57,794 nt of DNA from Syntrophus sp. (in: bacteria). GTDB lineage: Bacteria > Desulfobacterota > Syntrophia > Syntrophales > UBA8958. The DNA is taken from NCBI GenBank assembly GCA_025355725.1, contig JANXZC010000034.1, positions 1 to 57,794 of the forward strand, in the 5' to 3' direction. Shown piece after piece: positions 140 through 57,459 of the stretch (within the stretch, counting starts at the first letter, position 1; each line of letters starts with the position of its first letter). Under the pieces are notes generated by a model. The model was not told the DNA's origin. It was given only the letters and a program-made list of their open reading frames with translations, and searched no databases. The translations under genes and the position numbers were made by a program.

Positions 140-285
140 AAAAAGGTCTTGCGATTAAAAAACATTAAGAGATACCCCCAGTTATTACAGCCACCATAGA
201 AATACCTGGCAAAATACCGATGTTGAAAACATATTGCCCAAAACAGGTCCTTACAGATAACCGCCCATAAGGCCTATTACCTCCC
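140..285 (-). pseudogene. decayed fragment of a TVP38/TMEM64 (VTT/DedA superfamily) gene
   Basis: Minus strand reads REVIGLMGGYL*GPVLGNMFST...FLIARPF, matching GEATGLIGGYLYGPILGTIYST...FIIARFF of the intact gene at 54563-55234. In-frame TAA at 251-253 plus frameshift(s). Confidence 0.75.
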
Positions 286-297
286 TATGTATTACAT

Positions 298-492
298 TCA
301 TTCTTTCTTATTCTCGTTCTTTTTGGCCTCCGTAAGCTCCCCCGGCTTCTCTTCCGGTTCAGCCATAGATCTTTTGAAATCCTTAATCGCTTTCCCCACG
401 GAGCTTCCCAGATCGGGAAGCTTGCCGGGACCGAAGACGATCAAGGCAATGACCAATACGATAACCAATTCCTGCATGCCTATTCCAAACAT
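298..492 (-). CDS. tatA: twin-arginine translocase TatA/TatE subunit (copy 1)
   Basis: MFGIGMQELVIVLVIALIVFGPGKLPDLGSSVGKAIKDFK: TM helix, FGP hinge, amphipathic helix. Start at ATG 492 with AAGGGGA RBS. Confidence 0.93.
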   Translation of the reverse strand: MFGIGMQELVIVLVIALIVFGPGKLPDLGSSVGKAIKDFKRSMAEPEEKPGELTEAKKNENKKE

Positions 493-514
493 ATATTCCC
501 CCTTGTTGTGACGA

Positions 515-880
515 TCAATGTTCCAGGGCTTCCACGATGGCCTTATCCAGCACATTCATATCAATAGGCTTCTTGATGTATTTTAAAACACCCTTCTTGA
601 TGGCTTCATCAATCGTATTTTCATCGTGAAAAGCCGTAATCATAATAACTTTCGCCTGATGATCCTGTTTCCTAAGTTCGTCGTAAACAAAAAACCCGCT
701 TACGTCGGGAAGGCGGATGTCAAGGATCACCAGTTCTGCTCGTGAGGCGGTATATTTGCTGATGCCCGCCCATCCATTGTCCGCGACTTCAACGTCATAA
801 CCTTCTTCAGTCAAATACATGTCAAGCGATTCACGGATGGAATCGTCATCGTCAATGATCAGAATCCTCGACATTGTCAC
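515..880 (-). CDS. single-domain response regulator (receiver only)
   Basis: ILIIDDD, LDIRLP (phospho-acceptor Asp), MITA, KP motifs; no output domain. Start may be ATG 874. Confidence 0.92.
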   Translation of the reverse strand: MTMSRILIIDDDDSIRESLDMYLTEEGYDVEVADNGWAGISKYTASRAELVILDIRLPDVSGFFVYDELRKQDHQAKVIMITAFHDENTIDEAIKKGVLKYIKKPIDMNVLDKAIVEALEH

Positions 881-894
881 CTCGTTTCATTTCT

Positions 895-937
895 TTAACA
901 GATAACCCTGGTATTACCAGGATCATGCAAAGGTTAA
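895..937 (-). promoter_or_regulatory. RNA hairpin between RAPP leader and response regulator
   Basis: mRNA AUGAUCCUGG-UAAUA-CCAGGGUUAU forms a 10-bp stem with two G-U pairs (only pairable on the minus strand), extended by UUAAC/GUUAA. Confidence 0.5.
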
Positions 938-971
938 TGGAGATAGACTATTTGGTTTTCCGCTAATTAAA

Positions 972-1298
972 CTAAAAAAAGGAGGGTGGAGCGCGAGTAT
1001 GAGACGGGCTTAGGTAAATGAGACTTACTTGCCACTTGATTTCTTCGAGGCAGGCTTGAGAGAAAGACAGTTGTTGTGAAAAATTATTTGCGTCTCTCCG
1101 GGCAGGATGAATAAACACCACCTTGACGCTGTGATCATCGGTATCAGCCTGACCGTTCCCACTTTGAATCATGGGAACACTGATATTTAAAGGCTGCCAG
1201 AATCCCGAAATGTCATCTATCCCCGTCAACAGGCATAAAATCATGATGCCAAGGCAGATTATCGGTTTTTGGGAAGAGATTTTTTTATGTATGGCCAT
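972..1298 (-). CDS. RAPP-motif leader protein, putative translation-arrest peptide (copy 1)
   Basis: 108 aa: basic N-terminus, hydrophobic segment, spacer, C-terminal HTRAPPSFF* (RAPP at 984-995). First ORF after a promoter. Confidence 0.7.
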   Translation of the reverse strand: MAIHKKISSQKPIICLGIMILCLLTGIDDISGFWQPLNISVPMIQSGNGQADTDDHSVKVVFIHPARRDANNFSQQLSFSQACLEEIKWQVSLIYLSPSHTRAPPSFF

Positions 1299-1341
1299 AA
1301 GGCGTCTTGCTCTCCGTCAAAGCCCTTAACTCTCAGGGCAG

Positions 1342-1370
1342 ACTATAAGGCGGACAACTTCCGAAGTCAA
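1342..1370 (-). promoter_or_regulatory. sigma70-type promoter for RAPP leader 1 unit
   Basis: TTGACT-N17-TATAGT on minus strand, ~45 nt upstream of ATG 1298. Confidence 0.7.
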
Positions 1371-1423
1371 TTAAAATGATGGGATACCTATCAATCAACT
1401 CGCGTGAATTGGTTGGACCAGAA

Positions 1424-3283
1424 TCACATCACCTGTTTTTCTCCAAATTCGCAGGACAGGACAAAAAAGTCCTCTTCCAGAGCAGTCTTGACGGCATAGG
1501 GAAGTTTCTTGAACAGGCGGATCATGGCGGCGTTACGGTGCGAGGTATAGGCCACCATGCCGGAATAACCATTCCCCATGGCCCCTTGGGCGAGTTTGGT
1601 CAAAATGACATGGGCAATCCCCTTGCCCTGCCAGTCTTTGGAGACGGAAAAAGCGACTTCCACCCGGTTCTGTGCCGGTTCGAGATTATATTCACCAACG
1701 GCGATCACCCTTTCCAGTCCCCCTTCCCCCGTGGCGGCAACAACAGTCATATTCTTGATGTAGTCCACCTGATACATGTCCGCCAGTTGTTCCTGATAGA
1801 AGGTCGAGCGCAACTGGAAGAATCTTGTTGCCACATCCTTGTCGTCCATGGTGTAGAAGTGTTCCTGGATGGGGCGGATATCGGTCGGTTTGACGGGACG
1901 GAAGGTAACCCGGACGCCGCCATATTCCCGGATTTCTTCCAGCCGGACGGGATAGACGCCGAAGAGGGATTCGTTCAGGGTGCGCTCCGGACTGATCAAA
2001 CCCAGTTCCCCGGCCTGCCGGAAAAGCTCTTCCCGAAAGGCGGGATGGGCGATGCTGATCAGGGCCATGGCCCGTTCTTGGAGACTTTTACCGAAGAGAT
2101 TGACCATGCCGTATTCCGTGATGACGTACTGAATATAGCTTTTCGATATGAACACCGCCCCGCAGTCCAGTTCGGGAACAATGTTGCTCTTCTTGCCGTC
2201 GGTTGTAGCGGCAGACAGGACGATTATTGATTTTCCCTCCGGGTTAGCCTGGGCGCCGATGACAAAATCGGCCATCCCGGTAACCCCGGAGAAATAATTC
2301 TCGGGCAGGGCATCAGCGGCAATCTGTCCGGTCAGATCTATGGCCGTGGCGGCATTTACAGAGGTCATCCGCTCCTGCCCAGCAATAATGATAGGGTTAT
2401 TTACATAGTCGGCAGGGTGAAATTCAATGGCGGGATGGTTATGGAGGAATCGGTACAATTCCTCCCCGCCGATGGCCGACTCCGCCACCAATTTTCCTTC
2501 GTGACTGCTCTTATAGCGATTCGTAACCACCCCTTCCTTCATGAGGTGCATGAATCCGTCCGTCATAAACTGGGTATGGACTCCCAGGTCACGCTTGTCC
2601 TTTAAGGCTCTGAGGATGGGGCCGTTATATTCACTCAGCCCCACATGAATCGTAGCGCCGTCCTCAATCAGGCAGGCCACCAGTTCGGCAATCTTCCGGG
2701 CCTCTTCCGTTTCCGGATGTTCCTGAACCGTCGGCAGCGGGGCGTCCCATTCCACAAACACATTTATGTCCCGGACATGGAGAAAGGTGTTCCCATTGAT
2801 GCGGGGCATCTGCGGGTTGACCTGGGCGATCACGAGATCCGCCGCCTGGGCTGCGGCTCTCGTGATATCGACGGATACCCCCAGGCTCATCCATCCGTAT
2901 TCATCGGGCGGGCTGACTTGAATTAGGGCGCAGTTGATCGGCAACTTCCGGGAACGAAAAAGTCGGGGGATGGAGGAAAAACCCATGGGGGTGAGAAAGC
3001 GGCGGATGCCTCTGAGCTGTTCCGTCCGTCCCGACCCCTGATAGATACTCCGGAAGGAAAAGATATGCTCCAGCTCCTGCCGATGCTTCGCCAAGTCGAT
3101 GGTTGCTTCCAATGCCAGGAGGCGGATAATCTCCAGATCGGAGAAGCGATCGCGGTTCTTAATGAGTGCTTCCACAAGATGGCGGGGCGAGCCGCAGGTG
3201 GAGCTAATGAAGACCCGCTGGCCGGAGTGGATCATGGCAATGGCTTCCTCTGCGGTCCTCAATTTTTGCCGGTATTCTTCCAT
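1424..3283 (-). CDS. acetyl-CoA hydrolase/transferase family protein with C-terminal GNAT domain
   Basis: QVSPPDEYGWMSLGVSVD, DLGVHT, IDLTGQ, YVITEYG, ALISIAHP (Cat2/ACH1-like). C-terminal EVAFSVSKDWQGKGIA acetyl-CoA-binding motif A. Confidence 0.9.
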   Translation of the reverse strand: MEEYRQKLRTAEEAIAMIHSGQRVFISSTCGSPRHLVEALIKNRDRFSDLEIIRLLALEATIDLAKHRQELEHIFSFRSIYQGSGRTEQLRGIRRFLTPMGFSSIPRLFRSRKLPINCALIQVSPPDEYGWMSLGVSVDITRAAAQAADLVIAQVNPQMPRINGNTFLHVRDINVFVEWDAPLPTVQEHPETEEARKIAELVACLIEDGATIHVGLSEYNGPILRALKDKRDLGVHTQFMTDGFMHLMKEGVVTNRYKSSHEGKLVAESAIGGEELYRFLHNHPAIEFHPADYVNNPIIIAGQERMTSVNAATAIDLTGQIAADALPENYFSGVTGMADFVIGAQANPEGKSIIVLSAATTDGKKSNIVPELDCGAVFISKSYIQYVITEYGMVNLFGKSLQERAMALISIAHPAFREELFRQAGELGLISPERTLNESLFGVYPVRLEEIREYGGVRVTFRPVKPTDIRPIQEHFYTMDDKDVATRFFQLRSTFYQEQLADMYQVDYIKNMTVVAATGEGGLERVIAVGEYNLEPAQNRVEVAFSVSKDWQGKGIAHVILTKLAQGAMGNGYSGMVAYTSHRNAAMIRLFKKLPYAVKTALEEDFFVLSCEFGEKQVM

Positions 3284-3402
3284 TGTTTAAAGCCTCCCTA
3301 TAATCGCTAACGGCGATATTGCACATAAAACATAATAATTCACCAACTTTTCTCCTGTTTTCTTTCCTTGTGCAGAAATGACAATCCATTGTATATTATT
3401 AT

Positions 3403-4853
3403 ATGGTTGACTATGCCCTGACCGACAAAAAAAGCCAGTTCGCCCTCATCGCCCTGGCCGGCTCCCTTGCGGGCGTGGCCAATCTCGATTATTCCCTGGT
3501 AAATATCTCCATCATTCCCATTTCTAAATACTTTAACGTTTCCACATCCTTAAGCGACTGGGTGCTGATCATCCTCGGTCTCATTTCCGTGGCCACCCCC
3601 GTGGGATTCGGAAAACTGGGGGATCTCAGGGGTTATCGGAACGTTTTGAATATCGGCCTGGTTATTTACGCCACCGGAAACATCATGTGCGCCTTCGCCC
3701 CCAGTATCCAGGTGCTGATTGCCTTTCATACCCTGAAGTCAGTAGGCTACGCTATGATTCTGCCCATGTCCCTCGCCATTACGACGGTTTTTCTCCCGGG
3801 CCGCATGATCGGTCTGGCCCTGGGTGTTGTCGCCGCCATGGCGGCCCTCGGTTTCGCCATGGGACTTGCCGTCGGCGGTTACGTCGCCCTGGCCTTCGGC
3901 TGGCAATACAATTTCCTGGTTTCCGTCCCCATTCTGGCTGCGGCGCTGCTTGCCTCCTTTATCATCGTCCCCTCCAGGCAGGCGGAGGCCCCCGACGCCC
4001 GTTTTGATCTGCCCGGCGCCGTCTGGCTCTTCTTGGCCCTGCTTCCTCTGATCTTTGCGCTGAATTCCGGCGCCAAAGCGGGATGGAGTAATCCGATCAT
4101 CCTGACGGCCTTTGTTATCTCCGCCGTCGGTTTCGTTTTGTTTTTCCGCCAGGAACAGCGCATATCTTACCCCCTCGTGGACCTGAACCTTTTTAAAAAA
4201 AGGAGGTTTTCCTATTCTGTCGCAGCGGTGGCCATGGTTTACTTTCTCATGGGAGGGGTAATGTTCCTCTTTCCTTTTTATCTCCTCCTCGTTCGCCACC
4301 TCGACATGTCCCAGGCCGGACTGGTCACCATGATTTTCCCCATCACGGCGGCCGTTGTGGCCCCTTTCGCCGGAAGCCTGGCCGACCGTTTCGGCTCCCA
4401 CCTCCTCTGTACGGCAGGCATGTTGATCGCTGCCGCCGGTAATATCCTTGTCGCTCTTCTGAGTGCTGATTCCGGCCTTGCCCATGTCATTGCCGCCCTG
4501 TGCCTGATGGGGGTGGGCATCGGCCTGTTTTTTGCGCCCAACAATAAACTGATCATGGCCCTTACCCCGAAGGAGAAACAGGGTATGGCATCCGGCATCT
4601 ACCGGATGACGACAAACGCCGGATCAGTCCTAGGCATCGTTTTTTTGTCCTCGTCGGCCAGCAGGTCATCTACATTGATTGCAGTCGGTGGTACATTGCC
4701 CCGTCCGCTTACAAACTGCACCCGGAGATCCTCATGCATGGCTTTCAGGTGGTTTTTATAATCGGAGCGGCATTGATGCTGGTGAACGCCTTCTTCGCAT
4801 TTCAGGCCAAAGATGTTGCCAAAGACGCTGTCGAACCGGCCCCTGCCCTATGA
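3403..4853 (+). pseudogene. DHA2-type (14-TMS) MFS transporter, frameshifted near the 3' end
   Basis: GKLGDLRGYR and GSLADRFG motif A. The ORF goes out of frame at the T7 run 4640-4646. One extra T restores FFVLVGQQ...HGFQVVFIIGAALMLVNAFFAF...* ending at 4853. Confidence 0.75.
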
Positions 4854-4890
4854 GAACAAAAGTTTTATCATTTATGGAGGTACTTAATAG

Positions 4891-6888
4891 ATGGAAAATG
4901 CTACACACCCAATGCTGGCGCTTCAGGCAGCCATCAAACAGCGGACGGGCAAGATCGTCTCCTCCAGTGAGGCGGTCCGGATTATCCTAAATGGCGACAC
5001 TATCGCCTTCAGCGGCTTTCTCGGCGCCGTCTTTGCCGAAGAGATCGCCCGGAAAATCGAGGAATCTTATCTTAAATGTGGAAATCCGAGGGATTTGACC
5101 CTCGTCTATGCTGCGGGAATCGGCGACGGCAAAGAAAAGGGCGTCAACATCCTGGCCCACGAAGGGCTGCTGAAGAAGGTCGTCTGCGGTCATGTCGGTC
5201 TGGCCCCGAAGCTTCAGAAGCTCATCCGGGAGAACAAGATTCTGGCCTATAACCTTCCCCAAGGGGTGATCAACCACCTCACCCGGGACATCGCTGCCCA
5301 CAAGCCAGGAACGCTTTCTTTCGTCGGGTTGGGAACCTTCATAGATCCCCGTCTGGACGGGGGGAAACTCAATGACCTGACAAAAGCGGAGGGGGAAGAT
5401 CATGTCCAGCTTATGAGCGTAGAGGGGAAGGAATGCCTGTTCTACAAGGCCTTCCCTATTAACGTGGCCGTGATCAGGGGTACCACTGCCGATCCTGACG
5501 GCAACATCACCATGGAAAAGGAGGCTCTGACTCTGGAGACCCTATCTTTGGCCATGGCCGCCAAGAATTCCGGGGGTTTTGTCATCGCCCAGGTGGAACG
5601 CATCGCCGACCGGGGAACCCTCAACGCCCGGCAGGTAAAGATACCAGGGATATTCGTGGACTGCATTGTCGTCGCCAGACCAGAATATCATTGGCAGACC
5701 AACATCGAGGTCTATAATCCCGCCTACAGCAGCGAAATCCGCATCCCCATGCGGTCCATTGCCCCTATGGAGATGAGCGAGCGGAAAATCATCGCCCGGC
5801 GCGCCGCCTTCGAACTCCGTCCCAACAGCGTTGTGAACCTCGGCATCGGCATGCCCGAGGGGGTTGCTCAGGTAGCCAACGAAGAGAAGCTCATCGAGTA
5901 TCTGACCCTGACCGCCGAGCCGGGCGTGATCGGTGGGATGCCCAACAGCGGCCCCAATTTCGGCACGGCGGTAAATATCGACGCCCTCATCGACCAGCCA
6001 TATCAGTTCGATTTCTACGATGGCGGCGGTCTGGATATGGCATTTCTCGGCATGGCCCAGGCGGACCGCGAAGGAAACATCAACGTCAGCCGCTACGGCC
6101 CCCGCTTCGTCGGTCCCGGCGGCTTCATCGACATCAGCCAGAACTCGAAAAAGGTAATTTTTACCGGGACATTTACGGCCGGGGGGCTTAATGTCGGCGT
6201 CGAGGACGGAAAGCTGCGCATCCTCAGCGAGGGAAAGGAACGGAAATTTATCCAAGCGGTAGAACAGAAAACCTACAGCGGGGCTTACGGGGCGAAGAGC
6301 GGCCGACCGGTCCTGTATGTGACGGAACGATGCGTCTTTCGCCTCACCACGGAAGGGATGGAACTCACCGAGATCGCTCCGGGGGTTGACCTGGAGAAAG
6401 ACATCCTCGCCCTGATGGACTTCACGCCGGTGATGAAGGAGGAACCCCGTCTTATGGACGCTCGCATCTTCCGTCCCGAACCGATGAATCTGAAGGACGA
6501 TCTTCTGTCGGTGCCCTTGGAGGAACGCTTTACCTATAATCCCGAAGAGAACATCTTCTTTGTCAATTTCGAGAACTTCTTTGTCCGTTCCCGGGGGGAC
6601 ATCGAAAAGATCAGAGACACGGCGGAAAAGATCCTCGTCCCCATCGGCAAAAAGGTCTTTACTATCGTCAATTACGATAATTTCAACATCCTGCCGGAGT
6701 TAGTGGACGAATACGCCGATATGGTAAAGTATATCATGGGCTACTACGAGAAGACGACCCGCTACACGACGAGCACGTTCCTTAGGATGAAGCTGGGCGA
6801 CGAGCTCCAGGAACGGGGGGTGGCGCCCCACATCTGTGAAAACAGGGATGAAGCCCGGCGGAAATTACTCTTTGAGATGGATGGATAA
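4891..6888 (+). CDS. acyl-CoA:acetate CoA-transferase (propionate CoA-transferase/YdiF type) with extra C-terminal domain
   Basis: YNLPQG, RGTTADPDGN, VNLGIGMPEG, AEPGVIGG (catalytic Glu), QFDFYDGGGLD, GPGGFIDISQ, TERCVF. About 125 extra aa follow. Confidence 0.9.
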   Translation: MENATHPMLALQAAIKQRTGKIVSSSEAVRIILNGDTIAFSGFLGAVFAEEIARKIEESYLKCGNPRDLTLVYAAGIGDGKEKGVNILAHEGLLKKVVCGHVGLAPKLQKLIRENKILAYNLPQGVINHLTRDIAAHKPGTLSFVGLGTFIDPRLDGGKLNDLTKAEGEDHVQLMSVEGKECLFYKAFPINVAVIRGTTADPDGNITMEKEALTLETLSLAMAAKNSGGFVIAQVERIADRGTLNARQVKIPGIFVDCIVVARPEYHWQTNIEVYNPAYSSEIRIPMRSIAPMEMSERKIIARRAAFELRPNSVVNLGIGMPEGVAQVANEEKLIEYLTLTAEPGVIGGMPNSGPNFGTAVNIDALIDQPYQFDFYDGGGLDMAFLGMAQADREGNINVSRYGPRFVGPGGFIDISQNSKKVIFTGTFTAGGLNVGVEDGKLRILSEGKERKFIQAVEQKTYSGAYGAKSGRPVLYVTERCVFRLTTEGMELTEIAPGVDLEKDILALMDFTPVMKEEPRLMDARIFRPEPMNLKDDLLSVPLEERFTYNPEENIFFVNFENFFVRSRGDIEKIRDTAEKILVPIGKKVFTIVNYDNFNILPELVDEYADMVKYIMGYYEKTTRYTTSTFLRMKLGDELQERGVAPHICENRDEARRKLLFEMDG

Positions 6889-6902
6889 GGATGACTGATG
6901 AG

Positions 6903-6925
6903 GCGGGAGAACACTGTTTCCCCGC
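6903..6925. terminator. GC-rich hairpin after CoA-transferase
   Basis: GCGGGAGAACA..TGTTTCCCCGC imperfect stem followed by an A-rich run. Confidence 0.4.
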
Positions 6926-7073
6926 TCCATAAAAAAAAATGAATTTTCCCCTTGAAGGTTGGATAATTAACTGGTATTAAATTCCGGAAAGAAAGTTGCG
7001 GCAGGCCGGACGGTGATCGAAAGGGATAATTCAAGGAAGTTTGAAATTTCATACCAATAAGGAGGATACGTTT

Positions 7074-8201
7074 ATGAAAAGTAGTGGGTTACGGCTTTTA
7101 TTAGTGGTTTTTCTGTGTTTGCTCTTTGCAGGTTGTGCGACAAAAAAGGCGGCTTTTTCGCCCGACACTCTCGATGGGCAAGTGAAAGCAGGTAAATTAA
7201 TACAGAAAACAGAGAATTTTGTTGTCCTCTTTGATAAGTCTTCCTCCATGGACGACCCCTATGGCAAATCAACGGAGCTGGCTTTGGCAAGAGAAGTGAC
7301 CCAGAGAATGATCCAGACGATTCCGGATATCAAGCTGACCGCGGGACTCCGGGATTTCTATAACGATAAGACAACGCTTCTCTACGGGATGGCCCCCTTT
7401 GACAAAACAGCTTTTGTCAAAGGCATGGAAACCCTGCAATGGGGCAGCGGTCCGACCCCGATGGAGAAGGCTATTGACGGGGCCGCAATCGACCTCCAAG
7501 GAAAAACGGGAAATTCGGCTGTAATTATTGTCAGCGATTTCGAGAATATACCGGGCGTTGACGACCTTCAGCCCGCAAAGGTAATTCCCTCCGTAGCCAG
7601 ATTAAAGGCGCAGTATGGCGACAGGGTCTGCATCTACACCATCCAGGTAGGCAAGTACCCGAGGGCGAAAGAAATGACCGACGCGATCAGGCAGGAGGCC
7701 AAGTGCGGCGCCGATGTTAACGCCGATGATTTAGCTACTCAGGCGGCCATGGATGCATTTGTGGCAAAGATATTCCTCACAACCCCGCAGCCGGCAGCCG
7801 CCGCGCCGGTCGTAGAGCAGGTACAAGAAGCAAAAGCGGAAGCAGCGGCCCCGGCAGTGGCTCTGGAACTGGCAAATATCCACTTTGATTTTGACAAATC
7901 CGCAATCAGAACCCCGGATAGAGAAATCCTGAAAGGTCATGCCGACTGGCTTATGAAGAATAAGGATTATTCGCTGACCGTTGAGGGTTATTGCGACGAA
8001 AGAGGCACTTCGGAATACAACTTGGCCCTGGGAGAAAGACGGGCCATGGAAGCCAAGAAGTATCTCGTCGGGCTTGGTATTGACGAAAAAACAATCAAAA
8101 CCATCACTTATGGTTCAGAACGGCCCCTTGATCCGGGACACAACGAGGCAGCCTGGGCCAAGAACCGGCGGGCACAGTTTGTCCCGGCCCAGAACAAATG
8201 A
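7074..8201 (+). CDS. lipoprotein with VWA-like domain and C-terminal OmpA/Pal peptidoglycan-binding domain
   Basis: Lipobox FAGC; MIDAS-like FDKSSSM...IIVSD; IHFDFDKS, EGYCDERGTSEYNLALGERRA, KNRRA. GGAGG RBS before ATG 7074. Confidence 0.85.
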   Translation: MKSSGLRLLLVVFLCLLFAGCATKKAAFSPDTLDGQVKAGKLIQKTENFVVLFDKSSSMDDPYGKSTELALAREVTQRMIQTIPDIKLTAGLRDFYNDKTTLLYGMAPFDKTAFVKGMETLQWGSGPTPMEKAIDGAAIDLQGKTGNSAVIIVSDFENIPGVDDLQPAKVIPSVARLKAQYGDRVCIYTIQVGKYPRAKEMTDAIRQEAKCGADVNADDLATQAAMDAFVAKIFLTTPQPAAAAPVVEQVQEAKAEAAAPAVALELANIHFDFDKSAIRTPDREILKGHADWLMKNKDYSLTVEGYCDERGTSEYNLALGERRAMEAKKYLVGLGIDEKTIKTITYGSERPLDPGHNEAAWAKNRRAQFVPAQNK

Positions 8202-8230
8202 TTTTGCATCTGTAATTCATTGATCATGGC

Positions 8231-8331
8231 GGCGGAGCTTTTAAAGCTCCGCCAATAGATCAGTGACAGACGAAGACGTCGTTATTTATCGGCCGCCTCT
8301 CTGAGTAGAATTACTACCCGGAGAGGCGGCC
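8231..8331. terminator. two hairpins between convergent genes
   Basis: GGCGGAGCTT-TT-AAAGCTCCGCC (8231-8253) and GGCCGCCTCTC..GAGAGGCGGCC plus T-rich tail (8291-8331). Confidence 0.6.
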
Positions 8332-8361
8332 TTGTTTTTACTGACAAGCTTCTAATCTAAG

Positions 8362-49838: not shown

Positions 49839-50307
49839 TTTCCCTGATCATTACCCGCTGCAGGATATCCTTCAGCTCCGGATCGTTGATGGCAGCGAGG
49901 CTTTCCGCCATGAGGCGTTCATCCCGCTCCTTGAGGAAAGACACCCATGTGGACAAAGGAACGACGGCAGCGTTTTCGGCATGGTTTGCCGGGACCTCGC
50001 CAATGGAAAAATTCAGTTTCTCGACGGTTCCTTCTCCATAGAGGCTGTTGAATTTCTGGATGATATCTTTCTTCAGGAACTGAAGCTGGTGCATCCAGAC
50101 CGAAGAGGCCACCTTGACGGAAAGGACGCCTCTCCTGATCTGCTCCGGCAGGGTCTGGGCGGCAATCTGGGGACCCACTGCTTCACTCCAGACCCGGCGC
50201 AGGGATGTGCTTGCCCCGGCAACAGGAATCCCCTGTTTTTTCATGATCTTCTGAAGAACATCAGCTATGGGCAGGGGTTTGAATTGGGGGCGTCGGCGCG
50301 GGGGCAT
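49798..50307 (-). CDS. dciA: DUF721 / DciA replicative helicase loader
   Basis: WSEAVGPQIA, GVLSVKVASSVWMHQL. Confidence 0.78.
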   Translation of the reverse strand: MPPRRRPQFKPLPIADVLQKIMKKQGIPVAGASTSLRRVWSEAVGPQIAAQTLPEQIRRGVLSVKVASSVWMHQLQFLKKDIIQKFNSLYGEGTVEKLNFSIGEVPANHAENAAVVPLSTWVSFLKERDERLMAESLAAINDPELKDILQRVMIREISRRRFLQRRKGR

Positions 50308-50374
50308 ACCTTTTTACCTTATCTACAGTTCTCAGGATGGGGTTGCGTATTTTGTCCGTTCACGGTAGCATTAA

Positions 50375-50767
<393 letters not shown>

Positions 50768-51298
50768 TCAGAGGATCTTTCTCAGTTCCTTCACAAAGAC
50801 TTCATAGGTCTCGCGGCCAAAGAGGACGAAACGGACCAGTTCGATATCTTCGTGCTCCCCCAGGTAATCCACCGCCGTCTTCAGGGCGATATGGGCGGCC
50901 TCGGCCAGGGGGTAACTGTAGACCCCCGCGCTGATGGCGGGAAAGGCGATGCTCTTTAGTTTTCTGGCGGAAGCGAGCTTCAGACTCTCCAGATAGGCGC
51001 TCCGCAACAGGTTGGCCTCCCCTCTCCCCCCTCCCTGGTAGACCGGTCCGACGGTGTGGATAACGTACTTCGCCTTCAGGGCGCCTCCGGAGGTGATAAC
51101 CGCCTGACCGGTGGGACAACCGCCGATCTTCCGGCATTCCTCCATGATGGACGGCCCCCCGGCCTCATGGATTGCCCCATCCACCCCCGCCCCCCCGGCC
51201 AGGCCGGAGTTGGCGGCATTGACGATAACATCCGTCTCCTCCCGGGTAATATCCCCCTGCACCAGCGACAGCATCCCTTTGTTGACCTTCACGTCCAT
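50768..51298 (-). CDS. macrodomain O-acetyl-ADP-ribose deacetylase (YmdB-like)
   Basis: GDIT, IVNAANSGLAGGAGVDGAIH, VIHTVGP, AFPAISAGVY. Confidence 0.92.
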   Translation of the reverse strand: MDVKVNKGMLSLVQGDITREETDVIVNAANSGLAGGAGVDGAIHEAGGPSIMEECRKIGGCPTGQAVITSGGALKAKYVIHTVGPVYQGGGRGEANLLRSAYLESLKLASARKLKSIAFPAISAGVYSYPLAEAAHIALKTAVDYLGEHEDIELVRFVLFGRETYEVFVKELRKIL

Positions 51299-51468
51299 AA
51301 TTCTCACCTCCTCGTCCAAAACTACGTTAAGGGTGTTTGAGAAATTTAACCTTCTCTTCCGGCTTATGCAAGGGAAAAATCGGGCAATGTATAATTCTTC
51401 TAGACACCCAACCTTTCAGATGTTACTTAATATTCGTACCGATAATTTCGGTTAACAGGGATAATCAG

Positions 51469-53082
51469 ATGCAGGATCAACGCAAGACAAAACAGGAACT
51501 GATTGAGGAGCTGGCTTCTCTAAGACGAAAGATTGCAGAGCAGGAGCGATCGAAGCCGGCACCAACACTGGCAGAGCTCTTAATCCGCGTAAGCGAGGCA
51601 AAATACCAAAGACTCTTTGATATTGCCACAATCGGAATCTTCCAGTCATCGGCGGAAGGAAAGGTAATCACTGCCAATTCTGAATTTGCGCATCTGTTCG
51701 GCTACGAATCTCCGGAAGACGTTATTGCCTCTGTAAATGATGTCACCGTCGATATGTACGTAGATCCACAGCGCCGCGCGGAAATTGTACGCCTGATGAT
51801 GGAAAATCCAAGCTTGAGAAGCTTTGAAAACTTATATCGCCGCAAGGATGGCAGCACTTTCACGGGCAACCTGCACATATGGCCGGTCCAGGATGCAGAT
51901 GGCCGCCTGTTGACGATAGAGGGTTTCGTTGAAGACATCTCAGAGCGTAAACGGGTGGAGGAGGCGCTGCAACGGGCCCGCAATGAATTGGAACAGCGCG
52001 TCGCGGAGCGGACAGAGGAATTGGTGCGGGTTAATGAGGACCTACAGAATGAGGTTGCCGAGCACAAGCGAGCTGAGGAGGCGCTCCGGGAGAGTGAAGC
52101 GAATTATAGACGACTTTTTGACAGCTCACCATCGGTGATATACCAAATTGATTTTAGGACGGGAAAGTTTTTAAAAGCAAACGATATCGTCTGCGAATAT
52201 CTTGGCTGTAGTCAAGGAGAAATAACTTCACGATCTCCATACGACTTACTGACCGATGAAAGCAAAGTGCAATTTTTTGAACATTTAAGAAAAATGTCTT
52301 TAGGCGAGGAAGTAACAGAAAATCCGGAATACGAGGTAATGGATAAAGACGGGAGGCGATGGTGGCTCCAGTTAAGTAGCAAAAATGTTTATGATAAAGA
52401 AGGTCTTGCCGGAACCGACGTTGTTGCCCATGATATCACCGCTCGCAAGCAGGCAGAAGAAAAGCTGAATAACCGTATGGAATTTGTAACAACACTTCTC
52501 GATACCATTCCCAGCCCAGTCTTCTACAAGGATATCTCCGGAAAATACTTGGGCTGTAACCATGCCTATGAGGAGCTCATTGGCAAGTCCAGAGAAGAGA
52601 TTGTAGGTAAGGACATTTACGAGATATATCCTGCTGAATTAGCTTATTTATATGATAAAAAAGATCAGGAACTGTATGAATGCCCAGGCAGCCAAATCTA
52701 TGATGGTAGTTTTAGCGCCGCAGATGGCTCAATCAGGGACGTGATCATCAATAAGGCTACCTATACAGATGCGAGCAAGAATATTGTCGGAGTAATTGGG
52801 GTATTCATAGACATCACCGATCGCAAACAGGCCGCAGCGGCACTTGAAGAAGAACGCAGGCGACTCCAACAGTCACTGGATGAGGTCAGGACATTGCGTG
52901 GGATTGTGCCTATCTGTGCAAACTGTAAGAAAATCCGCGATGACAAGGGTTACTGGAACCAGGTGGAGAAGTATGTCAGCGAGCGCACCGATGCCGAGTT
53001 CAGCCATGGGATTTGTCCTGATTGTGCGAAAAAACTGTATCCCGAATTCTATGGAGAGAAACAAGGAGACGATAAACTCTAA
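51469..53082 (+). CDS. multi-PAS sensor protein with C-terminal Cys/His motif, no kinase domain
   Basis: Three PAS/PAC units (EDISERK, HDITARK, IDITDRK); C-terminal PICANCKKIRD..W..FSHGICPDC. Confidence 0.85.
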   Translation: MQDQRKTKQELIEELASLRRKIAEQERSKPAPTLAELLIRVSEAKYQRLFDIATIGIFQSSAEGKVITANSEFAHLFGYESPEDVIASVNDVTVDMYVDPQRRAEIVRLMMENPSLRSFENLYRRKDGSTFTGNLHIWPVQDADGRLLTIEGFVEDISERKRVEEALQRARNELEQRVAERTEELVRVNEDLQNEVAEHKRAEEALRESEANYRRLFDSSPSVIYQIDFRTGKFLKANDIVCEYLGCSQGEITSRSPYDLLTDESKVQFFEHLRKMSLGEEVTENPEYEVMDKDGRRWWLQLSSKNVYDKEGLAGTDVVAHDITARKQAEEKLNNRMEFVTTLLDTIPSPVFYKDISGKYLGCNHAYEELIGKSREEIVGKDIYEIYPAELAYLYDKKDQELYECPGSQIYDGSFSAADGSIRDVIINKATYTDASKNIVGVIGVFIDITDRKQAAAALEEERRRLQQSLDEVRTLRGIVPICANCKKIRDDKGYWNQVEKYVSERTDAEFSHGICPDCAKKLYPEFYGEKQGDDKL

Positions 53083-53178
53083 GGTCAGTTCCAGTCGTGA
53101 GAACCTGTAGGGTATGCCGTGTCTTGCTCTTCCATGGAAGGTGGCATTCGGTAATAATAACGCTTATCACATGCGCGA

Positions 53179-53330
53179 TTATAAAATGGTAGCCTCCTTG
53201 AGTTCCCGGGCTTAGGCAGCGGCCTGCGGGAGAATGTCCTGCTCCTGGCTGTGCCGGGCGATCCCTTTGACAAAGGCGCTGCCGATAACGACCCCGTCGG
53301 CAAGGGCGGCGAATACAGTCCTGGTTGCCG
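53179..53330 (-). pseudogene. trpA: tryptophan synthase alpha chain 3' remnant
   Basis: Minus strand FAALADGVVIGSAFVKGIARH..AAA*ARELKEATIL*: TrpA C-terminal ADG-V-V-x-GS motif with premature TAA (53212-53214) and no N-terminal part. Confidence 0.65.
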
Positions 53331-53567
53331 GCCTGAAGGGTTGCGTGTTACATTTTTAGCACCGGTTCGTTGACATCTCCTCTGGTTAGTGTATCATTTT
53401 TGCAGTAGGAAGTTTTTTATCTCTGCGTTTAAATCGAATCTGACACTTACGAGGAAGGCAGCCATATTGCCTCACCCAAAGTAAAGCCTCTTTCGGCATT
53501 GCATATTTCAATCGACCATCGATAATTCCATCTGATGATCAGTCATAGCTCAATAAACAATGAATGT

Positions 53568-54437
53568 TTAAATAACTTTTTCCATAGCAGCAATCGCCAC
53601 TTCGATTTGATCATCGGTCGGTTGTCGAGTTGTGATCTTCTGTAACATCAATCCCGGCCAGCTTAAAAATTGCACCCATGTCCATTCTTGGTGTTTTCCT
53701 GTGTAGCGTATCACCTCGTATGAAATACCGGCAACCACAGGAAGAAGGAGAAGTTTGTATAAAACGCGGTGGGCAAAATCAGGGCGGCCAAGTAGCGAGA
53801 ATACGAGAATAGAGACAATCATGACCACCAAAATAAAACTCGTTCCGCAACGCGGATGACGTGTCGAATATTTTCGAACGTTTGCAACCGTCAATTCCTG
53901 TCCGTTTTCCCACGCGAATACTGTCTTATGTTCAGCGCCATGATACATGAACACCCGCCGCATGTCTTCCATGAGCAGAGTGGAACCCAAGAAGCAAAGA
54001 AATAGACCGAGACGTATGCAACCTTCAATGATATTCAAGAGAAAAGTACTGGCGATAACGCTTCTTAGTAGAGAAAAGATGTAGGCGGGAATAACAATAA
54101 AAAAGCAAATCGATACGGTAAGACTGATCAACATGGATAGGGGCATTTCCCACCGCCCCGGTTTTTTATCGTTCTCAGTCAGAGCCATCTCAGCAGAAAA
54201 CATAAGGCTTTTCATTCCGATGACCATCATTTCGATAAGCGAAACCGAGCCGCGAATAAACTTGAATCCCAGTAATTTGTAACGTTTGGCAAGAGGAACA
54301 TGATACTTTTCCTGGATGATGATTTCATTATCGGGTCTTCTCACAGCTGAGGCAATTTTGTTTTCGTGGCGCATCATGACGCCTTCAATGAGTGCCTGCC
54401 CACCAGCAATATCATTGGTCCGCTTTTCGTTATTCAT
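53568..54437 (-). CDS. DUF1385 membrane protein
   Basis: GGQALIEGVMMR, VFMYHGAEHK, HPRCGTSF, GLMLQKITT. Confidence 0.9.
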   Translation of the reverse strand: MNNEKRTNDIAGGQALIEGVMMRHENKIASAVRRPDNEIIIQEKYHVPLAKRYKLLGFKFIRGSVSLIEMMVIGMKSLMFSAEMALTENDKKPGRWEMPLSMLISLTVSICFFIVIPAYIFSLLRSVIASTFLLNIIEGCIRLGLFLCFLGSTLLMEDMRRVFMYHGAEHKTVFAWENGQELTVANVRKYSTRHPRCGTSFILVVMIVSILVFSLLGRPDFAHRVLYKLLLLPVVAGISYEVIRYTGKHQEWTWVQFLSWPGLMLQKITTRQPTDDQIEVAIAAMEKVI

Positions 54438-54562
54438 TTTAACATCTCCATATCTTTGCTTGGGTGCGTACTCCGCTATCCCTGCCCTTGTAGATTTGGT
54501 AGGGTGTGTAATGTAAACAACCTTCCATGCCGCAAAGGCCGCTCTTGGGCTCGTGTGTTGCC

Positions 54563-55234
54563 TTATGCAGCTTTTTTCTTTAGTTTTTCAAGCAATTTAT
54601 CTCGATAAAAATAAGCAGCTACGAAAACGATCGAGCTTACTCCGACGAGAATGAATAAAGCGCGATACTGCCCATTGCGGACACAGCTTCCGGTTATAGT
54701 TAGCATCAGTGTTCCGAGTAAACGTCCAACTGTCGAAATGGTCAAGAAATGCCACGTCTTCATATGACTTAAACCCATGATGTAGCAGAGGTAATCTTTT
54801 GGTAAACCAGGGATAAGAAAGAGGAGAAATGAAACGAGAATTCCTCTATGTTCCATAAAATGATCAAATTTTTTTAAGACATCTGACGAAACAACTTTTT
54901 CCACCAAAGGCATGCCGAAGAACCTTGCTATTATAAATGCCAGCCAGGAACCAATTGTAAGACCAATTGTTGAATAAATTGTCCCCAGGATTGGACCATA
55001 AAGATAACCGCCAATGAGGCCCGTCGCTTCCCCAGGTATTGGCGCTGCCACCACCTGCATGATCTGAAGCAAAATGAAGACGATTTCATCATAGGGATGA
55101 AATGAATTAATGAATCCTATGCCTTTTTCTTTATTGACAAAGAATTCATACAAATCATGATGGATGAAAACATAAGTCAACAGAAAGACAATCAGAAATA
55201 AGAAAATGATCCTGAAGGCAAGACGTCTATTCAT
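54563..55234 (-). CDS. TVP38/TMEM64 family (VTT domain, DedA superfamily) membrane protein
   Basis: LQIMQVVAAPIPGE, GGYLYG, FLIPGLPKDYLCY, GRLLG. Confidence 0.88.
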   Translation of the reverse strand: MNRRLAFRIIFLFLIVFLLTYVFIHHDLYEFFVNKEKGIGFINSFHPYDEIVFILLQIMQVVAAPIPGEATGLIGGYLYGPILGTIYSTIGLTIGSWLAFIIARFFGMPLVEKVVSSDVLKKFDHFMEHRGILVSFLLFLIPGLPKDYLCYIMGLSHMKTWHFLTISTVGRLLGTLMLTITGSCVRNGQYRALFILVGVSSIVFVAAYFYRDKLLEKLKKKAA

Positions 55235-55252
55235 TGAACAGAAATAGGTGTG

Positions 55253-55453
55253 CTATTCTTTTTTATCATTAATTTTCTTCGCTTCTGAAGTATCTTCCTT
55301 CTTATTCTCAGGTTCTTGCATAGCCTTCTGGAATCCTTTGATTGATTTGCCGAGAGTGCTCCCTAAATCTCCAAGCTTCCCCGGTCCGAAAATGACGAGG
55401 ACAATAATCAAAATTACCAGCAAATGCATCGGTTGAAAAAGACCTTGAAACAT
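55253..55453 (-). CDS. tatA: twin-arginine translocase TatA/TatE subunit (copy 2)
   Basis: HLLVILIIVLVIFGPGKLGDLGSTLGKSIKGFQKAM; AGGAGG RBS. Confidence 0.92.
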   Translation of the reverse strand: MFQGLFQPMHLLVILIIVLVIFGPGKLGDLGSTLGKSIKGFQKAMQEPENKKEDTSEAKKINDKKE

Positions 55454-55728
55454 CTCGCACTACCTCCTGTTCCTTGTGTTTATGGTTTCTTATAGTGCTT
55501 CAAGAGGAAAGTCAATCGAACGGTCACAACAGCTGTCGATGGGAGGACTACATTTCTGTGAATCCCACTTCTTCCTCTGAGTGTAAAGGATTCTTCCCAA
55601 ATATTGGCTCGTAAAATAAGCCTCTGCCAATACGGGAAATGCTTAAATATACCAACTGAGACCGCCATGGATACTAACAATAATCACAGTCACATGAACA
55701 TAACCAGATCTCCAAATGACCAACTCAT

Positions 55729-56229
55729 CTACTTGGAAGAACGCACCGGCAGTGCACGGCCGTTGATGCTGTTCGACTTGGGACTCAAGGCCTGTTCGCC
55801 ATCGAGGAATCGGAGGTAGGCAGCATAGGAGTCGTTAGTTTCAGATGCCCATGGTGCGAAACAGGTAATGTCTATCAACTCCGTTGCTACATGAATGTTA
55901 TTGATAGGATCGCATGCTCCCTGACGGGATTTATTCGCATCATACAGCCCCGCCAGCTCACTCTGTGTCGGCATCCGCCAGTCGGTATAGCCACCCTCAC
56001 GATAATTCTCGCAATAGGACTTAGCGTTCTGCCAGTTAATATCCGAACCGTTGTCCTTTGCCGCCCACATCAGGTTCGTCCGTGTGTCCAGTACTGTCCT
56101 ATTGTCATAGGTGATAAAGCGACCATCCTTGCCAATTTCTCCTGCTGTTGCATACTTCGTTGTAATAAAAGTTCCTGCTAAAATAGCCACCACCATTAAC
56201 ACTACTATCGTTCCTAATGCCCTTTTCAT
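55729..56229 (-). CDS. exported DUF1566 (Lcl-like) domain protein
   Basis: Signal/TM segment; TVLDTRTNLMW, NWQNAKSYC, GYTDWRMPT..EL, ALPVR. Confidence 0.82.
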   Translation of the reverse strand: MKRALGTIVVLMVVAILAGTFITTKYATAGEIGKDGRFITYDNRTVLDTRTNLMWAAKDNGSDINWQNAKSYCENYREGGYTDWRMPTQSELAGLYDANKSRQGACDPINNIHVATELIDITCFAPWASETNDSYAAYLRFLDGEQALSPKSNSINGRALPVRSSK

Positions 56230-56288
56230 CAGTTTGTACCTCCTCCAAGGTTTAACTTGGTTTCTGTTTCATAATTGATTACGCCAAA

Positions 56289-56462
56289 TTATGTTCTTGA
56301 GTCTAGGTTCGGGTAGATTAGCCCTGCTTGCAAGGCGATAAATTTGCTAATCTCCGCCAATCCCTTGTACGCGACTTCAACGTCACAATTTTCTTCTGTC
56401 AAGCACATGTCCAGTGATTCCCGGATGGAATCGTCATCTCCAATAATCAGGATATTCGCCAC
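56289..56462 (-). pseudogene. truncated paralog of the receiver-only response regulator at 515-880
   Basis: GTG start with AGGAGA RBS; ANILIIGDDDSIRESLDMCLTEENCDVEVAYKGLAEISKF matches SRILIIDDDDSIRESLDMYLTEEGYDVEVADNGWAGISKY. It diverges before the phospho-acceptor Asp and stops after 57 aa. Confidence 0.85.
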
Positions 56463-56512
56463 GGTCTCCTTGACTTCTTTTGAAAAATATTTCAGCCTCC
56501 GCTTATGATAGA

Positions 56513-56553
56513 ACCCTCCTCCCGATCTTGATCAGCGGAATCGGAAGGAGGGT
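56513..56553. terminator. hairpin downstream of the small exported protein
   Basis: ACCCTCCT-CCCGAT...ATCGG-AAGGAGGGT imperfect inverted repeat. Confidence 0.45.
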
Positions 56554-56586
56554 AGTCAAGGAGGGACCTTGACAACTTTAACTACT

Positions 56587-56796
56587 CTATTTGTTAATTT
56601 CCGTGTTTTTCACTTCCTCCTGAGGAGCTGGGGCCGATGGAGGTGCTTGCTGATCGGTACTCTGATCGGTGGGTGCGACTATCTTCTGCTGCTCCGGAGG
56701 TGATGTCTGAGGTTCATCGGCATAGGACAGCAAGGGGGCGGCACCAAAGAGGGCCGCCATAAAAGCGGCAAACACTATTTTCTTCATTTTTTTCAT
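56587..56796 (-). CDS. small exported Pro/Gln-rich protein
   Basis: Sec signal peptide MKKMKKIVFAAFMAALFGAAPLLSYA; AAGGAG RBS; low-complexity mature part. Confidence 0.75.
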   Translation of the reverse strand: MKKMKKIVFAAFMAALFGAAPLLSYADEPQTSPPEQQKIVAPTDQSTDQQAPPSAPAPQEEVKNTEINK

Positions 56797-56810
56797 GGGA
56801 ATTATCTCCT

Positions 56811-56924
56811 TTAAGAAAGTTTCATTTTTTTAATTGAGCAATCTGGCCTTTTGTTCGTTAATTTCGTCACGAAGACCAAAAGGGCATAAGATACAAACAG
56901 AATCATCATCGCGGATTCATCCAT
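56811..56924 (-). CDS. 37-aa single-TM small protein (absent from ORF track)
   Basis: GAGGT RBS; MDESAMMILFVSYALLVFVTKLTNKRPDCSIKKMKLS*; the stop overlaps the RBS of the next gene. Confidence 0.5.
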   Translation of the reverse strand: MDESAMMILFVSYALLVFVTKLTNKRPDCSIKKMKLS

Positions 56925-57063
56925 GGCAGTTTACCTCATTTGTTGCCAAGTCAGGGACCCATTGACAAAACCACTAATCTTGCCGAAGGCGTTTTCTCAA
57001 AACCGGTCTATGATGGCCGATACAATAACTTCTTAAGAGGTTACGAAAAGGTAAAGGAACAAA

Positions 57064-57399
57064 CTATAGAGATGAAACTGGGGGTGCCCGGTCTGGTTGG
57101 AAAAAAATTGCAGGTGTGTCAGGAATCAAAAGCCCCATCTCCTGATCAAGATAGGTCTTGATAACGAGATGGGGCAGATAATATTTATTACCATTTTTCG
57201 GGACAAGGTTAGGTGCCTTCCAGGTATGATGTTTGGAATCTCCCGAATCATCATTGTTCAATGATTGGATAAGGGTGGGGTTTGTTTTATAGAATATATT
57301 CTGCGCCACGAGGTCGTCCACCGTTACCGCTGCCACGATAAAGAACAACAGCAATATCTTCAAAACATGGGGTACGACCTGCTTACGCAGCCAAAACAT
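57064..57399 (-). CDS. RAPP-motif leader protein, putative translation-arrest peptide (copy 2)
   Basis: 111 aa from ATG 57399 (GAGGT RBS): basic N-terminus, TM segment, spacer, C-terminal QPDRAPPVSSL* (RAPP at 57079-57090). Confidence 0.7.
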   Translation of the reverse strand: MFWLRKQVVPHVLKILLLFFIVAAVTVDDLVAQNIFYKTNPTLIQSLNNDDSGDSKHHTWKAPNLVPKNGNKYYLPHLVIKTYLDQEMGLLIPDTPAIFFQPDRAPPVSSL

Positions 57400-57430
57400 C
57401 GTTAACCTACCTCTCTGAGTATTGATCGGC

Positions 57431-57459
57431 ATTATATAGAACCATTTCCGGAAAAACAA
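57431..57459 (-). promoter_or_regulatory. sigma70-type promoter for RAPP leader 2 unit
   Basis: TTGTTT-N17-TATAAT on minus strand, ~30 nt upstream of ATG 57399. Confidence 0.6.

Follow-up and report, generated by a model that had tools for sequence, protein, structure and literature searches.

Arrest-peptide feedback is established for the Sec and YidC routes of protein export. Among its sensors, ApdA and ApdP are oriented N-in, C-out and lack a cleavage site (PMC7897499), and the short motifs RAPP and RGPP have been described as versatile arrest cores, RAPP arresting in several peptide contexts and resisting EF-P (Fujiwara et al., EMBO J 2025, PMC12992588). Small secretory or membrane open reading frames (ORFs) with a C-terminal RAPP or RGPP sit upstream of diverse genes, and both motifs are excluded from proteomes save near the C-terminus of such small proteins (PMC12992588). 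Stalling in vitro was seen for seven Streptomyces RAPP/RGPP ORFs and for CruR (PMC12992588), the latter linking arrest at RAPP with Rho-dependent termination (Roy et al., mBio 2022, PMC9426467). DedA proteins, for their part, have been linked to export by the twin-arginine (Tat) pathway (PMC3836016, citing Sikdar and Doerrler 2010). Here we describe two small ORFs ending in RAPP, named RAPP1 and RAPP2, each of which heads a unit with an accessory tatA gene on contig JANXZC010000034.1 of a Syntrophus genome.

The window, by which we mean the whole stretch of DNA analysed, is this entire contig (57,794 bp; C170 of genome G000), from an assembly of 3.15 Mb in 183 contigs with 98.4% completeness and 2.1% contamination. 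Both units lie on the minus strand, as do all their features given below by window coordinates. Gene coordinates and family matches agree with an earlier description of this DNA (hereafter, the original prediction), in which leader and tatA were found in both units, an intact receiver gene only in copy 1 and an intact VTT gene only in copy 2. The original prediction also took sec and yidC genes to be the only ones with known RAPP leaders upstream, which does not stand, diverse genes having already been described downstream of them (PMC12992588; PMC9426467). With moderate confidence, we lean towards the view that the two ORFs are RAPP arrest-peptide leaders heading an envelope/export-stress module that includes an accessory tatA.

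Architecture and conservation of the RAPP ORFs

RAPP1 (972..1298), an open frame of 108 aa with 21 database relatives, has an N-terminal transmembrane (TM) helix and ends in HTRAPPSFF before the stop codon. RAPP2 (57064..57399), of 111 aa, also has an N-terminal TM helix and carries FFQPDRAPPVSSL at its C-terminus, the last residues being PDRAPPVSSL. The motif stands three residues ahead of the stop codon in RAPP1 and four in RAPP2; its codons, read from the sequence, are CGC GCT CCA CCC (984..995) and CGG GCA CCC CCA (57079..57090), respectively. The leaders share a positively charged N-terminus, a single TM helix and a tail of ~75 residues that is acidic just past the helix. In RAPP1, the basic N-terminus is followed by a hydrophobic stretch (residues 13-31, Kyte-Doolittle peak 2.09) and then by Asp-Asp. 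The AlphaFold2 model of this protein, based on a 23-sequence alignment, predicts a helix at residues 10-33 (predicted local distance difference test score, pLDDT, 75-84), a disordered stretch from 34 to 69 and another helix from 65 to 96; there is no globular fold, and pLDDT averages 57.6. The hydrophobic stretch of RAPP2 reads VLKILLLFFIVAAVTV in translation, and in both leaders this region is rich in Leu, Phe and Ile. An acidic/His block is conserved as well, as NDDPGDSxxH in RAPP2 and GQxDxxDH in RAPP1. The predicted topology is N-in, C-out and, given the ~70 residues from the TM helix to RAPP, the helix would be outside the ribosome as RAPP is decoded. Neither leader matched any Pfam family at E values up to 0.1. 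That the leaders are themselves Tat substrates was ruled out, because the Arg pair is unconserved (LRKQ, LRRR, LRER, LRKR or LLRR in RAPP2 sequences, none in RAPP1).

The RAPP motif is invariant in 23/23 aligned RAPP1-family sequences, in which just six columns are invariant and four of these are R102, A103, P104 and P105. In the RAPP2 family it is kept in nine of ten aligned sequences, the exception (P0025) having RASP, and the longer string FFQPDRAPP is nearly invariant. Both motif conservation and synteny, on which the original prediction had staked its case, are thus found in the homologues. Distant copies end, up to the stop codon, in RAPPSLVSVQTT (genome G035), RAPPSFS (G083), RAPPSC (G069), RAPPV (G238), and, at the metagenome loci L060 and L061, RAPPVSSL and RAPPASFR; the leader of G240 has RPPP in place of RAPP. 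In most loci the motif lies 1-4 residues before the stop codon, and the length of the leader is held near 106-117 aa. Since the codons for RAPP differ synonymously among loci (CGC GCT CCA CCC; CGG GCA CCC CCA; CGA GCA CCC CCC; and others), selection appears to act on the peptide. Ratios of nonsynonymous to synonymous substitution rates (dN/dS) of 0.41-0.44 for RAPP1 and 0.33 for RAPP2 (against a copy from genome G004), compared with 0.11-0.16 for the receiver, indicate that the RAPP ORFs are coding and under relaxed constraint, with purifying selection weaker than on the receiver.

The motif is rare elsewhere in G000. Among 29,731 stop-to-stop frames with a length of 50 aa or more, 7 have RAPP within their last 12 residues, RAPP1 and RAPP2 being two of these. 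Across the 2,621 ORFs (120 aa or longer) that make up a crude proteome, the sole instance of RAPP is the one in RAPP2, where composition would predict ~9.8, and AAPP is found 31 times. This rarity matches the published exclusion of the motif from proteomes (PMC12992588).

Searches of related genomes returned few carriers. Of 41 genomes searched, five including G000 had a match to RAPP1 (four from the 12 of the genus and G035 from another family) and three, all within the genus, a match to RAPP2; the database clusters numbered 21 for RAPP1 and 7, its own included, for RAPP2, and the database relatives carry the source label Syntrophales. Profile searches of the order found RAPP1 (profile A1) in 8 and RAPP2 (profile A2) in 5 of 301 genomes, again counting G000, in families f14, f15, f16 and f19. 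At the level of the phylum, where A2 was searched (A1 was searched to the order only), it matched 2 of 401 genomes, namely G000 itself and a weak match (E 0.001) with an internal stop, and a scan of metagenome contigs with A2 yielded the two loci L060 and L061. By these searches, the leaders are a Syntrophales-restricted peptide family. Five RAPP2 copies occur in G004, a genome of the same genus, on contigs C19, C22, C44, C63 and C70; two of these are nearly the same, and several are located at the ends of contigs.

Genes downstream of the leaders

Fifteen loci could be evaluated; left out were G004 C70, G011 C47, L060 and a marginal match in G009 (E 0.0094, internal stop). All 15 have downstream genes on the same strand. 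RAPP1 leaders are followed by a receiver gene and tatA in G000 (copy 1), G011 and G002, by a frameshifted receiver and a DUF2147 remnant with no tatA in G010, by tatA after 130 nt in G069, by an HU/IHF-like gene in G083 and by NAD-dependent epimerase genes in both G035 and G240, the genome with the RPPP variant. The longest RAPP2 units are copy 2 of G000 (a 37-aa ORF, a 69-aa ORF, a receiver fragment, an Lcl_C/DUF1566 gene, tatA, VTT and a 289-aa membrane protein) and G004 C22 (a 37-aa ORF, a 69-aa ORF, a receiver, DUF2147, tatA and DedA). The other RAPP2 leaders precede a 37-aa-type ORF and tatA (G004 C19), tatA after 300 nt (G238), a receiver and a gene of the DHDPS family, with a hybrid histidine kinase directly upstream of the leader (G004 C63), an N_methyl prepilin-type gene (metagenome locus L061), and the small and large subunits of a [NiFe] hydrogenase followed by maturation genes (G004 C44). 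The small subunit of this hydrogenase has a twin-arginine signal, SRRAFIK, at its N-terminus.

A tatA gene lies downstream on the same strand in 8 of the 15 loci (two in G000 and one each in G011, G002, G069, G004 C22, G004 C19 and G238), which belong to families f1, f15 and f16. The type of the leader agrees with that of tatA in seven of these eight, type 1 going with RAPP1 and type 2, recognised by MF[QE]GLFQPMH, with RAPP2; G004 C22 is mosaic. A receiver or its remnant is present in 7 of the 15 loci, and a VTT/DedA gene or remnant follows tatA in four of the eight, the fragment in G004 C22 scoring below the Pfam gathering threshold. Given these counts and the matching types, the leader-tatA link is, by gene order, old and recurrent, yet not exclusive. 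The leader-receiver-tatA-VTT unit expected in relatives by the original prediction was therefore recovered in part: the leader-tatA order recurs in three families and VTT in half of the tatA loci, but tatA itself in only 8 of 15. Because leaders also head HU-like, sugar epimerase, prepilin and receiver-DHDPS genes, the idea of a Tat-dedicated leader unit has to be given up, and the leader, judged by its neighbours, is a portable and putatively regulatory module that is not Tat-specific.

Two old units rather than a recent duplication

The original prediction regarded the two units as a duplicated cassette with reciprocal gene loss. Their tatA proteins are 60% identical over 45 residues, and the receiver fragment of copy 2 is 67% identical to the intact receiver of copy 1 over 49 residues. 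RAPP1 and RAPP2 have no similarity detectable by BLASTP (E 0.99), and hhalign of the two leader families gave a probability of 53%, the alignment covering only the TM helix and the acidic/His stretch that follows it. At the DNA level, the copies resemble each other only along 147 nt of the receiver (80%) and along 73 nt of VTT (71%). Because DNA similarity is confined to these stretches and the leaders are dissimilar, the units are, as far as sequence comparison tells, ancient paralogues and not a recent duplication. Instead of one cassette copied and then reduced, there are by the same comparison two old leader subfamilies, each with its own Syntrophales orthologues, with cassettes eroding differently in each lineage.

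Copy 1 has a sigma-70-like promoter, TTGACT-17-TATAGT, at 1342..1370, recognised solely by its match to the consensus (10 of 12 positions); three such sites were found in 1..1500 versus 3.2 expected in shuffles. The spacer from the RAPP1 stop codon to the receiver start (881..971) contains a small hairpin and the Shine-Dalgarno (SD) sequence GAGGTG, and a scan of this interval for a terminator-like site found none. The single-domain CheY-like receiver (515..880; PF00072, 98.2 bits) is intact and, as read from its translation, has the acidic cluster D10-D13, the phospho-acceptor D54, T82 and K104-P105; among its paralogues the nearest, at 52% identity, is the N-terminal part of a 464-aa open frame found on contig C180. 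The type 1 tatA (298..492; PF02416, 61.9 bits against a cut-off of 21; TIGR01411, 68.8 bits against 53.9) starts 22 nt after the receiver stop codon, a gap that leaves little space for a separate tatA promoter. Downstream, tblastn recognised 21 residues of a decayed VTT/DedA gene (221..283), which is interrupted by an in-frame stop; they align with residues 69-89 of the copy-2 VTT protein and agree with them at 13 positions.

In copy 2, a promoter-like site, TTGTTT-17-TATAAT (57431..57459), was read by eye, its first hexamer matching in three of six positions and hence falling below the promoter scan; this upstream block is kept in five of six aligned RAPP2 loci. Within its spacer lies a perfect 8-bp palindrome, TTCCGGAA (57443-57452), which is imperfect in the G004 copies. 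The leader is followed by the 37-aa small TM peptide ORF (56811..56924), kept in G004 C19, G004 C22 and L060, and by the Pro/Gln-rich 69-aa ORF (56587..56796), whose N-terminus is by eye hydrophobic and signal-peptide-like and which is kept in G004 C22 (67% identity) and L060, with remnants in G004 C63 and L061. The truncated receiver (56289..56462; 57 aa) stops short of the phospho-acceptor Asp, and in place of its C-terminal part stands the Lcl_C/DUF1566 gene (55729..56229; PF07603, 67.5 bits), which has many paralogues, at least 11 further G000 contigs carrying DNA that matches it at 76-82%. Then come the type 2 tatA (55253..55453; N-terminus MFQGLFQPMH; PF02416, 59.4 bits against a cut-off of 21; TIGR01411, 65.5 bits against 53.9), the intact gene of the VTT/DedA-family membrane protein (54563..55234; PF09335, 92.8 bits against a gathering score of 33.9) and the gene of the 289-aa membrane protein (53568..54437). 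The last was labelled DUF1385 in the original prediction; it has no NCBIfam match, and a 96% identical orthologue follows the RAPP1 cassette in G002. Since G000 encodes tatB-tatC on contig C117 and a further tatA on C102, the two tatA genes of the window are accessory paralogues.

RNA elements between the leaders and the next genes

The untranslated spacers between leaders and downstream genes measure 97-336 nt. Among four species, the RAPP1-receiver spacer is 75-92% identical in pairwise comparisons, and RNAalifold, applied to four close relatives, pairs the CCCUCC of the Pro-Pro-Ser codons with the GAGG of the receiver SD, though only one pair covaries. When the 30-nt arrest window was ranked as a partner of the next ribosome-binding site, it came third of 197 in G004 C63 and first of 143 in G035 (-21.7 kcal/mol).

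In the RAPP2-type loci a hairpin, CCCUCCUUCCGAU...AUCGGGAGGAGGG, precedes the next gene (56514..56552 in the window; L033 7873-7911, L035 1396-1434, L030 3502-3540, L043 5562-5601, L060 1067-1105 and L061 2534-2572 elsewhere). It occurs in all seven such loci with sequence there, 12-55 nt before the next start codon, and its position is constant, just upstream of whichever gene follows the RAPP2 leader block. The hairpin is GC-rich, the 5' arm resembling the 16S anti-SD and the 3' arm containing a strong SD-like run. Pairing is kept in 92.9% of the hairpin cells versus 50-66% when the partners are slid; covariation is modest, with two compensatory pairs and a score reached by 44 of 500 shuffles. 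A canonical terminator was ruled out, the U-tract being weak or absent in most copies, as was a genome-wide repeat, the hairpin occurring once in the G000 cassette, with two unrelated GC hairpins elsewhere. An Rfam scan of the whole window at gathering thresholds gave no matches.

Contig ends and signs of mobility

Both units adjoin the ends of the contig, and these ends are multi-copy repeats. The first (1..98) matches, at 98-100% identity, stretches close to the ends of contigs C129, C183, C91 and C59 and contains, by eye, an imperfect palindrome. The second (57611..57794) is 99.5% identical to C163 2889-3072 and is also found at the ends of C166 and C62; on C163 it lies ~60 nt upstream of an integron integrase gene (TIGR02249, 417.6 bits). 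We make no claim that the units are integron cassettes, attC and attI sites not being established. The G+C content of the two cassette regions (1-2000 and 52001-56000) is 0.43-0.47, compared with 0.52-0.58 across most of the contig, with further dips at 38-42 kb.

Other loci carry marks of a similar kind. Directly upstream of the RAPP2 leader of L061 lies a 478-aa ORF (180-1616) that by eye resembles an IS4-family transposase. In G238 (L043 4400-6193), the RAPP2-tatA unit stands between a DsbA-like gene and a 72-aa ORF whose last ~30 residues repeat the C-terminus of that gene, which looks like an insertion or recombination scar; a DsbA-like gene, recognised by eye, is also upstream of the leader in G004 C70. 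Together, the repeats at the contig ends, the integrase-linked repeat, the transposase-like ORF, the DsbA scar and the low G+C content suggest that the module moves or recombines.

Discussion

Taken with the observed anatomy of the leaders, the conservation and proteome depletion of RAPP and the synteny, analogy with described arrest peptides allows us to infer stalling, co-transcription, a signal and a direction of regulation. As in ApdA, ApdP and CruR, the ribosome would stall while its P and A sites are occupied by the two Pro codons of RAPP, and the stall would be relieved by Sec/YidC-dependent insertion or translocation pulling on the exported tail or by a periplasmic event. While it lasts, downstream genes on the same transcript would be expressed more, possibly because Rho-dependent termination is blocked in the 100-300-nt untranslated spacer, as for CruR, or because an RNA structure is opened. 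In G000, the genes so regulated would be those for the CheY-like receiver, the two accessory TatA proteins and the DedA/VTT protein, the housekeeping tatA and tatBC lying elsewhere. Candidate signals are the Sec/YidC pull on the exported tail, the proton-motive force and a periplasmic ligand at the acidic/His block. Translocation or membrane-energisation status, the signal supposed in the original prediction, is not singled out by any of our observations. The long spacers suit SD unmasking no better than a CruR-like mechanism.

Several observations weigh against this interpretation. Seven of the 15 loci have no downstream tatA. Folds of the RNA from the leader to the next gene are not unusually stable compared with shuffles (z -0.51 in copy 1 and +0.97 in copy 2), and as a duplex partner the arrest window comes no higher than 81st of 123 in copy 1 and 16th of 140 in copy 2. 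With folds no better than shuffles and duplex ranks that are mixed among loci, we make no claim of SD masking for the window; masking by arrest-site codons is plausible in some loci and unsupported in the window's cassettes. The 275-nt gap between the Lcl_C gene and tatA in copy 2 holds, by eye, a TTGACT-15-TATAAG site, so this tatA may be transcribed on its own. In addition, within the genus the leader shows fair conservation over its whole length (mean column identity 59-64%), so that the mature protein may have a function, and kinship inflates the counts in a small family from a single order.

One alternative is that the RAPP ORFs encode small bitopic membrane proteins of an ordinary sort, which might, for example, assist the receiver or Tat components as accessory subunits or act as their sensor partners; RAPP would then be a structural or interaction motif and any pausing non-regulatory. 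The conservation of the whole protein within the genus would suit such a role, as would a dN/dS below 1, the second predicted helix (residues 65-96) and the hybrid histidine kinase directly upstream in G004 C63. Nevertheless, RAPP supplies four of just six invariant columns, at the extreme C-terminus of the protein and in a proteome that otherwise avoids it; subfamilies too distant for BLASTP still share the TM helix, the length and RAPP; and the same ORF precedes unrelated genes. We regard such proteins as an unlikely explanation, to which we still give real weight. Much the same standing, improbable and yet worth serious attention, belongs to the proposal that the leader controls the immediate next gene only (the receiver or the 37-aa peptide), with tatA and VTT as passengers that have their own transcription and owe their linkage to shared ancestry in a drifting cassette. 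In loci that span different families, tatA comes next after the leader (G069, with a 130-nt gap, and G238) or is parted from it by the small TM-peptide ORF only (G004 C19), and a hairpin 12-55 nt from the next start codon leaves little promoter room, all of which the passenger proposal has to accommodate. It draws on the presence of that conserved hairpin between the leader block and the receiver or tatA, on the possible promoter seen by eye in the 275-nt gap of copy 2, and on the mosaic and eroding cassettes (G010 without tatA, G004 C63 with a receiver but no tatA, and REC and VTT fragments).

The leader may also be a CruR-like ligand sensor: a cue from the periplasm, such as a metal cation, would be bound by the acidic/His stretch of the nascent chain and free the arrest, and Rho would then terminate transcription before the downstream genes. 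CruR itself is a precedent (PMC9426467), the acidic/His block is conserved in both subfamilies and falls within the part aligned by hhalign, the untranslated spacers are long (97-336 nt), one copy is set before a [NiFe] hydrogenase operon, and upstream of another lies a large ORF that, by eye only, resembles a P-type ATPase of the Mg2+ type. Set against this are the lack of a Cys pair or known metal site in the leaders, the modelling of the acidic/His stretch at pLDDT <50, and downstream genes that are mostly not metal-related (tatA, receiver, DedA, prepilin), and we consider a ligand sensor distinctly unlikely. Finally, the presence of two units might be an artefact of assembly or binning, with strain variants of one locus placed at two contig ends. 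That both units abut multi-copy repeat contig ends in an assembly of 183 contigs would invite such an error, but the copies are just 60-80% identical where alignable, separate orthologues of each occur in other genomes, the intervening 53 kb holds ordinary chromosomal genes (judged by eye from N-terminal residues), and completeness (98.4%) and contamination (2.1%) are in order, making an artefact highly improbable.

If the leaders do stall ribosomes and control tatA, as in the arrest-peptide interpretation that we favour, post-transcriptional sensing by nascent chains would reach a third export pathway, which would help to explain why accessory TatA paralogues are retained in bacteria and what ties DedA proteins to Tat export. 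One leader set before very different genes, in two subfamilies that share just the TM helix, the length and RAPP, is also a natural experiment, useful for finding out what leaders sense. If there is no stalling, what is left is merely a small lineage-specific membrane protein beside tatA, and interest would be high only if a Tat-specific feedback loop were shown. In a bolder and quite speculative version, to which we attach little credence, RAPP leaders would be the first monitoring substrates tied to Tat: at least five copies in one genome would report the energised-membrane or export state and co-ordinate a regulon of accessory TatA, a DedA-type protein, a receiver, a Tat-exported [NiFe] hydrogenase and a prepilin, matching Tat capacity to cargo and proton-motive force, and the leader with its anti-SD/SD hairpin would be a portable cassette that moves between operons.

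Comparison with known systems

We know of no described post-transcriptional control of a tatA gene, and none came to light when the literature was searched for tatA together with RAPP or arrest peptides. Neither Tat nor twin-arginine export is mentioned in the main texts of PMC10987492, PMC12992588 and PMC7897499 (the supplements of PMC12992588 may list TatA), and the main text of PMC12992588 likewise does not mention "response regulator" or "DedA". The surveys in PMC7897499 and PMC10987492, as there described, covered only the regions upstream of sec and yidC genes. As far as we have searched, the kind of leader is known, and this family and its targets are undescribed; it probably extends a known class of stalling leader to a third protein-export pathway, Tat.

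The closest resemblance is to the ORFs of Fujiwara et al. (2025), which, as described there, are also shorter than 300 aa, with an N-terminal localisation signal, a RAPP near the C-terminus, a downstream gene on the same strand and a motif that is otherwise excluded from the proteome. Unlike them, the Syntrophales leaders have no homology that we found to the named members, and tatA, receiver, DedA/VTT, [NiFe] hydrogenase and prepilin genes are not named as targets in the main text of that paper; arrest, seen in vitro for seven Streptomyces ORFs, is predicted for the present leaders. CruR (DUF2946) of Bordetella pertussis is, according to its description, likewise a small leader with a conserved C-terminal RAPP that heads an operon, with a long spacer from its first gene to its second. 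Its arrest protects downstream transcription, which we propose for the Syntrophales leaders by analogy, but these have neither a DUF2946 match nor CXXC and do not precede copper uptake genes.

With the ApdA/ApdP-type monitors of Sec and YidC, the leaders share a predicted N-in, C-out signal-anchor and an arrest motif close to the C-terminal end (PMC7897499; Fujiwara et al. 2024, PMC10987492), as well as the logic of a leader that would induce a secondary paralogue of an export component. They differ from SecM, MifM, VemP, ApdA, ApdP and ApcA in what follows, namely receiver, tatA or other genes and not secA, secDF or yidC, and in that SD masking by arrest-site codons is not supported in the window. 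Lastly, the tatA genes of the two units encode, like TatE and other accessory TatA paralogues, short TatA/E-family proteins away from tatBC; what sets them apart from these is the RAPP leader ahead of them, often accompanied by a receiver and a DedA gene.

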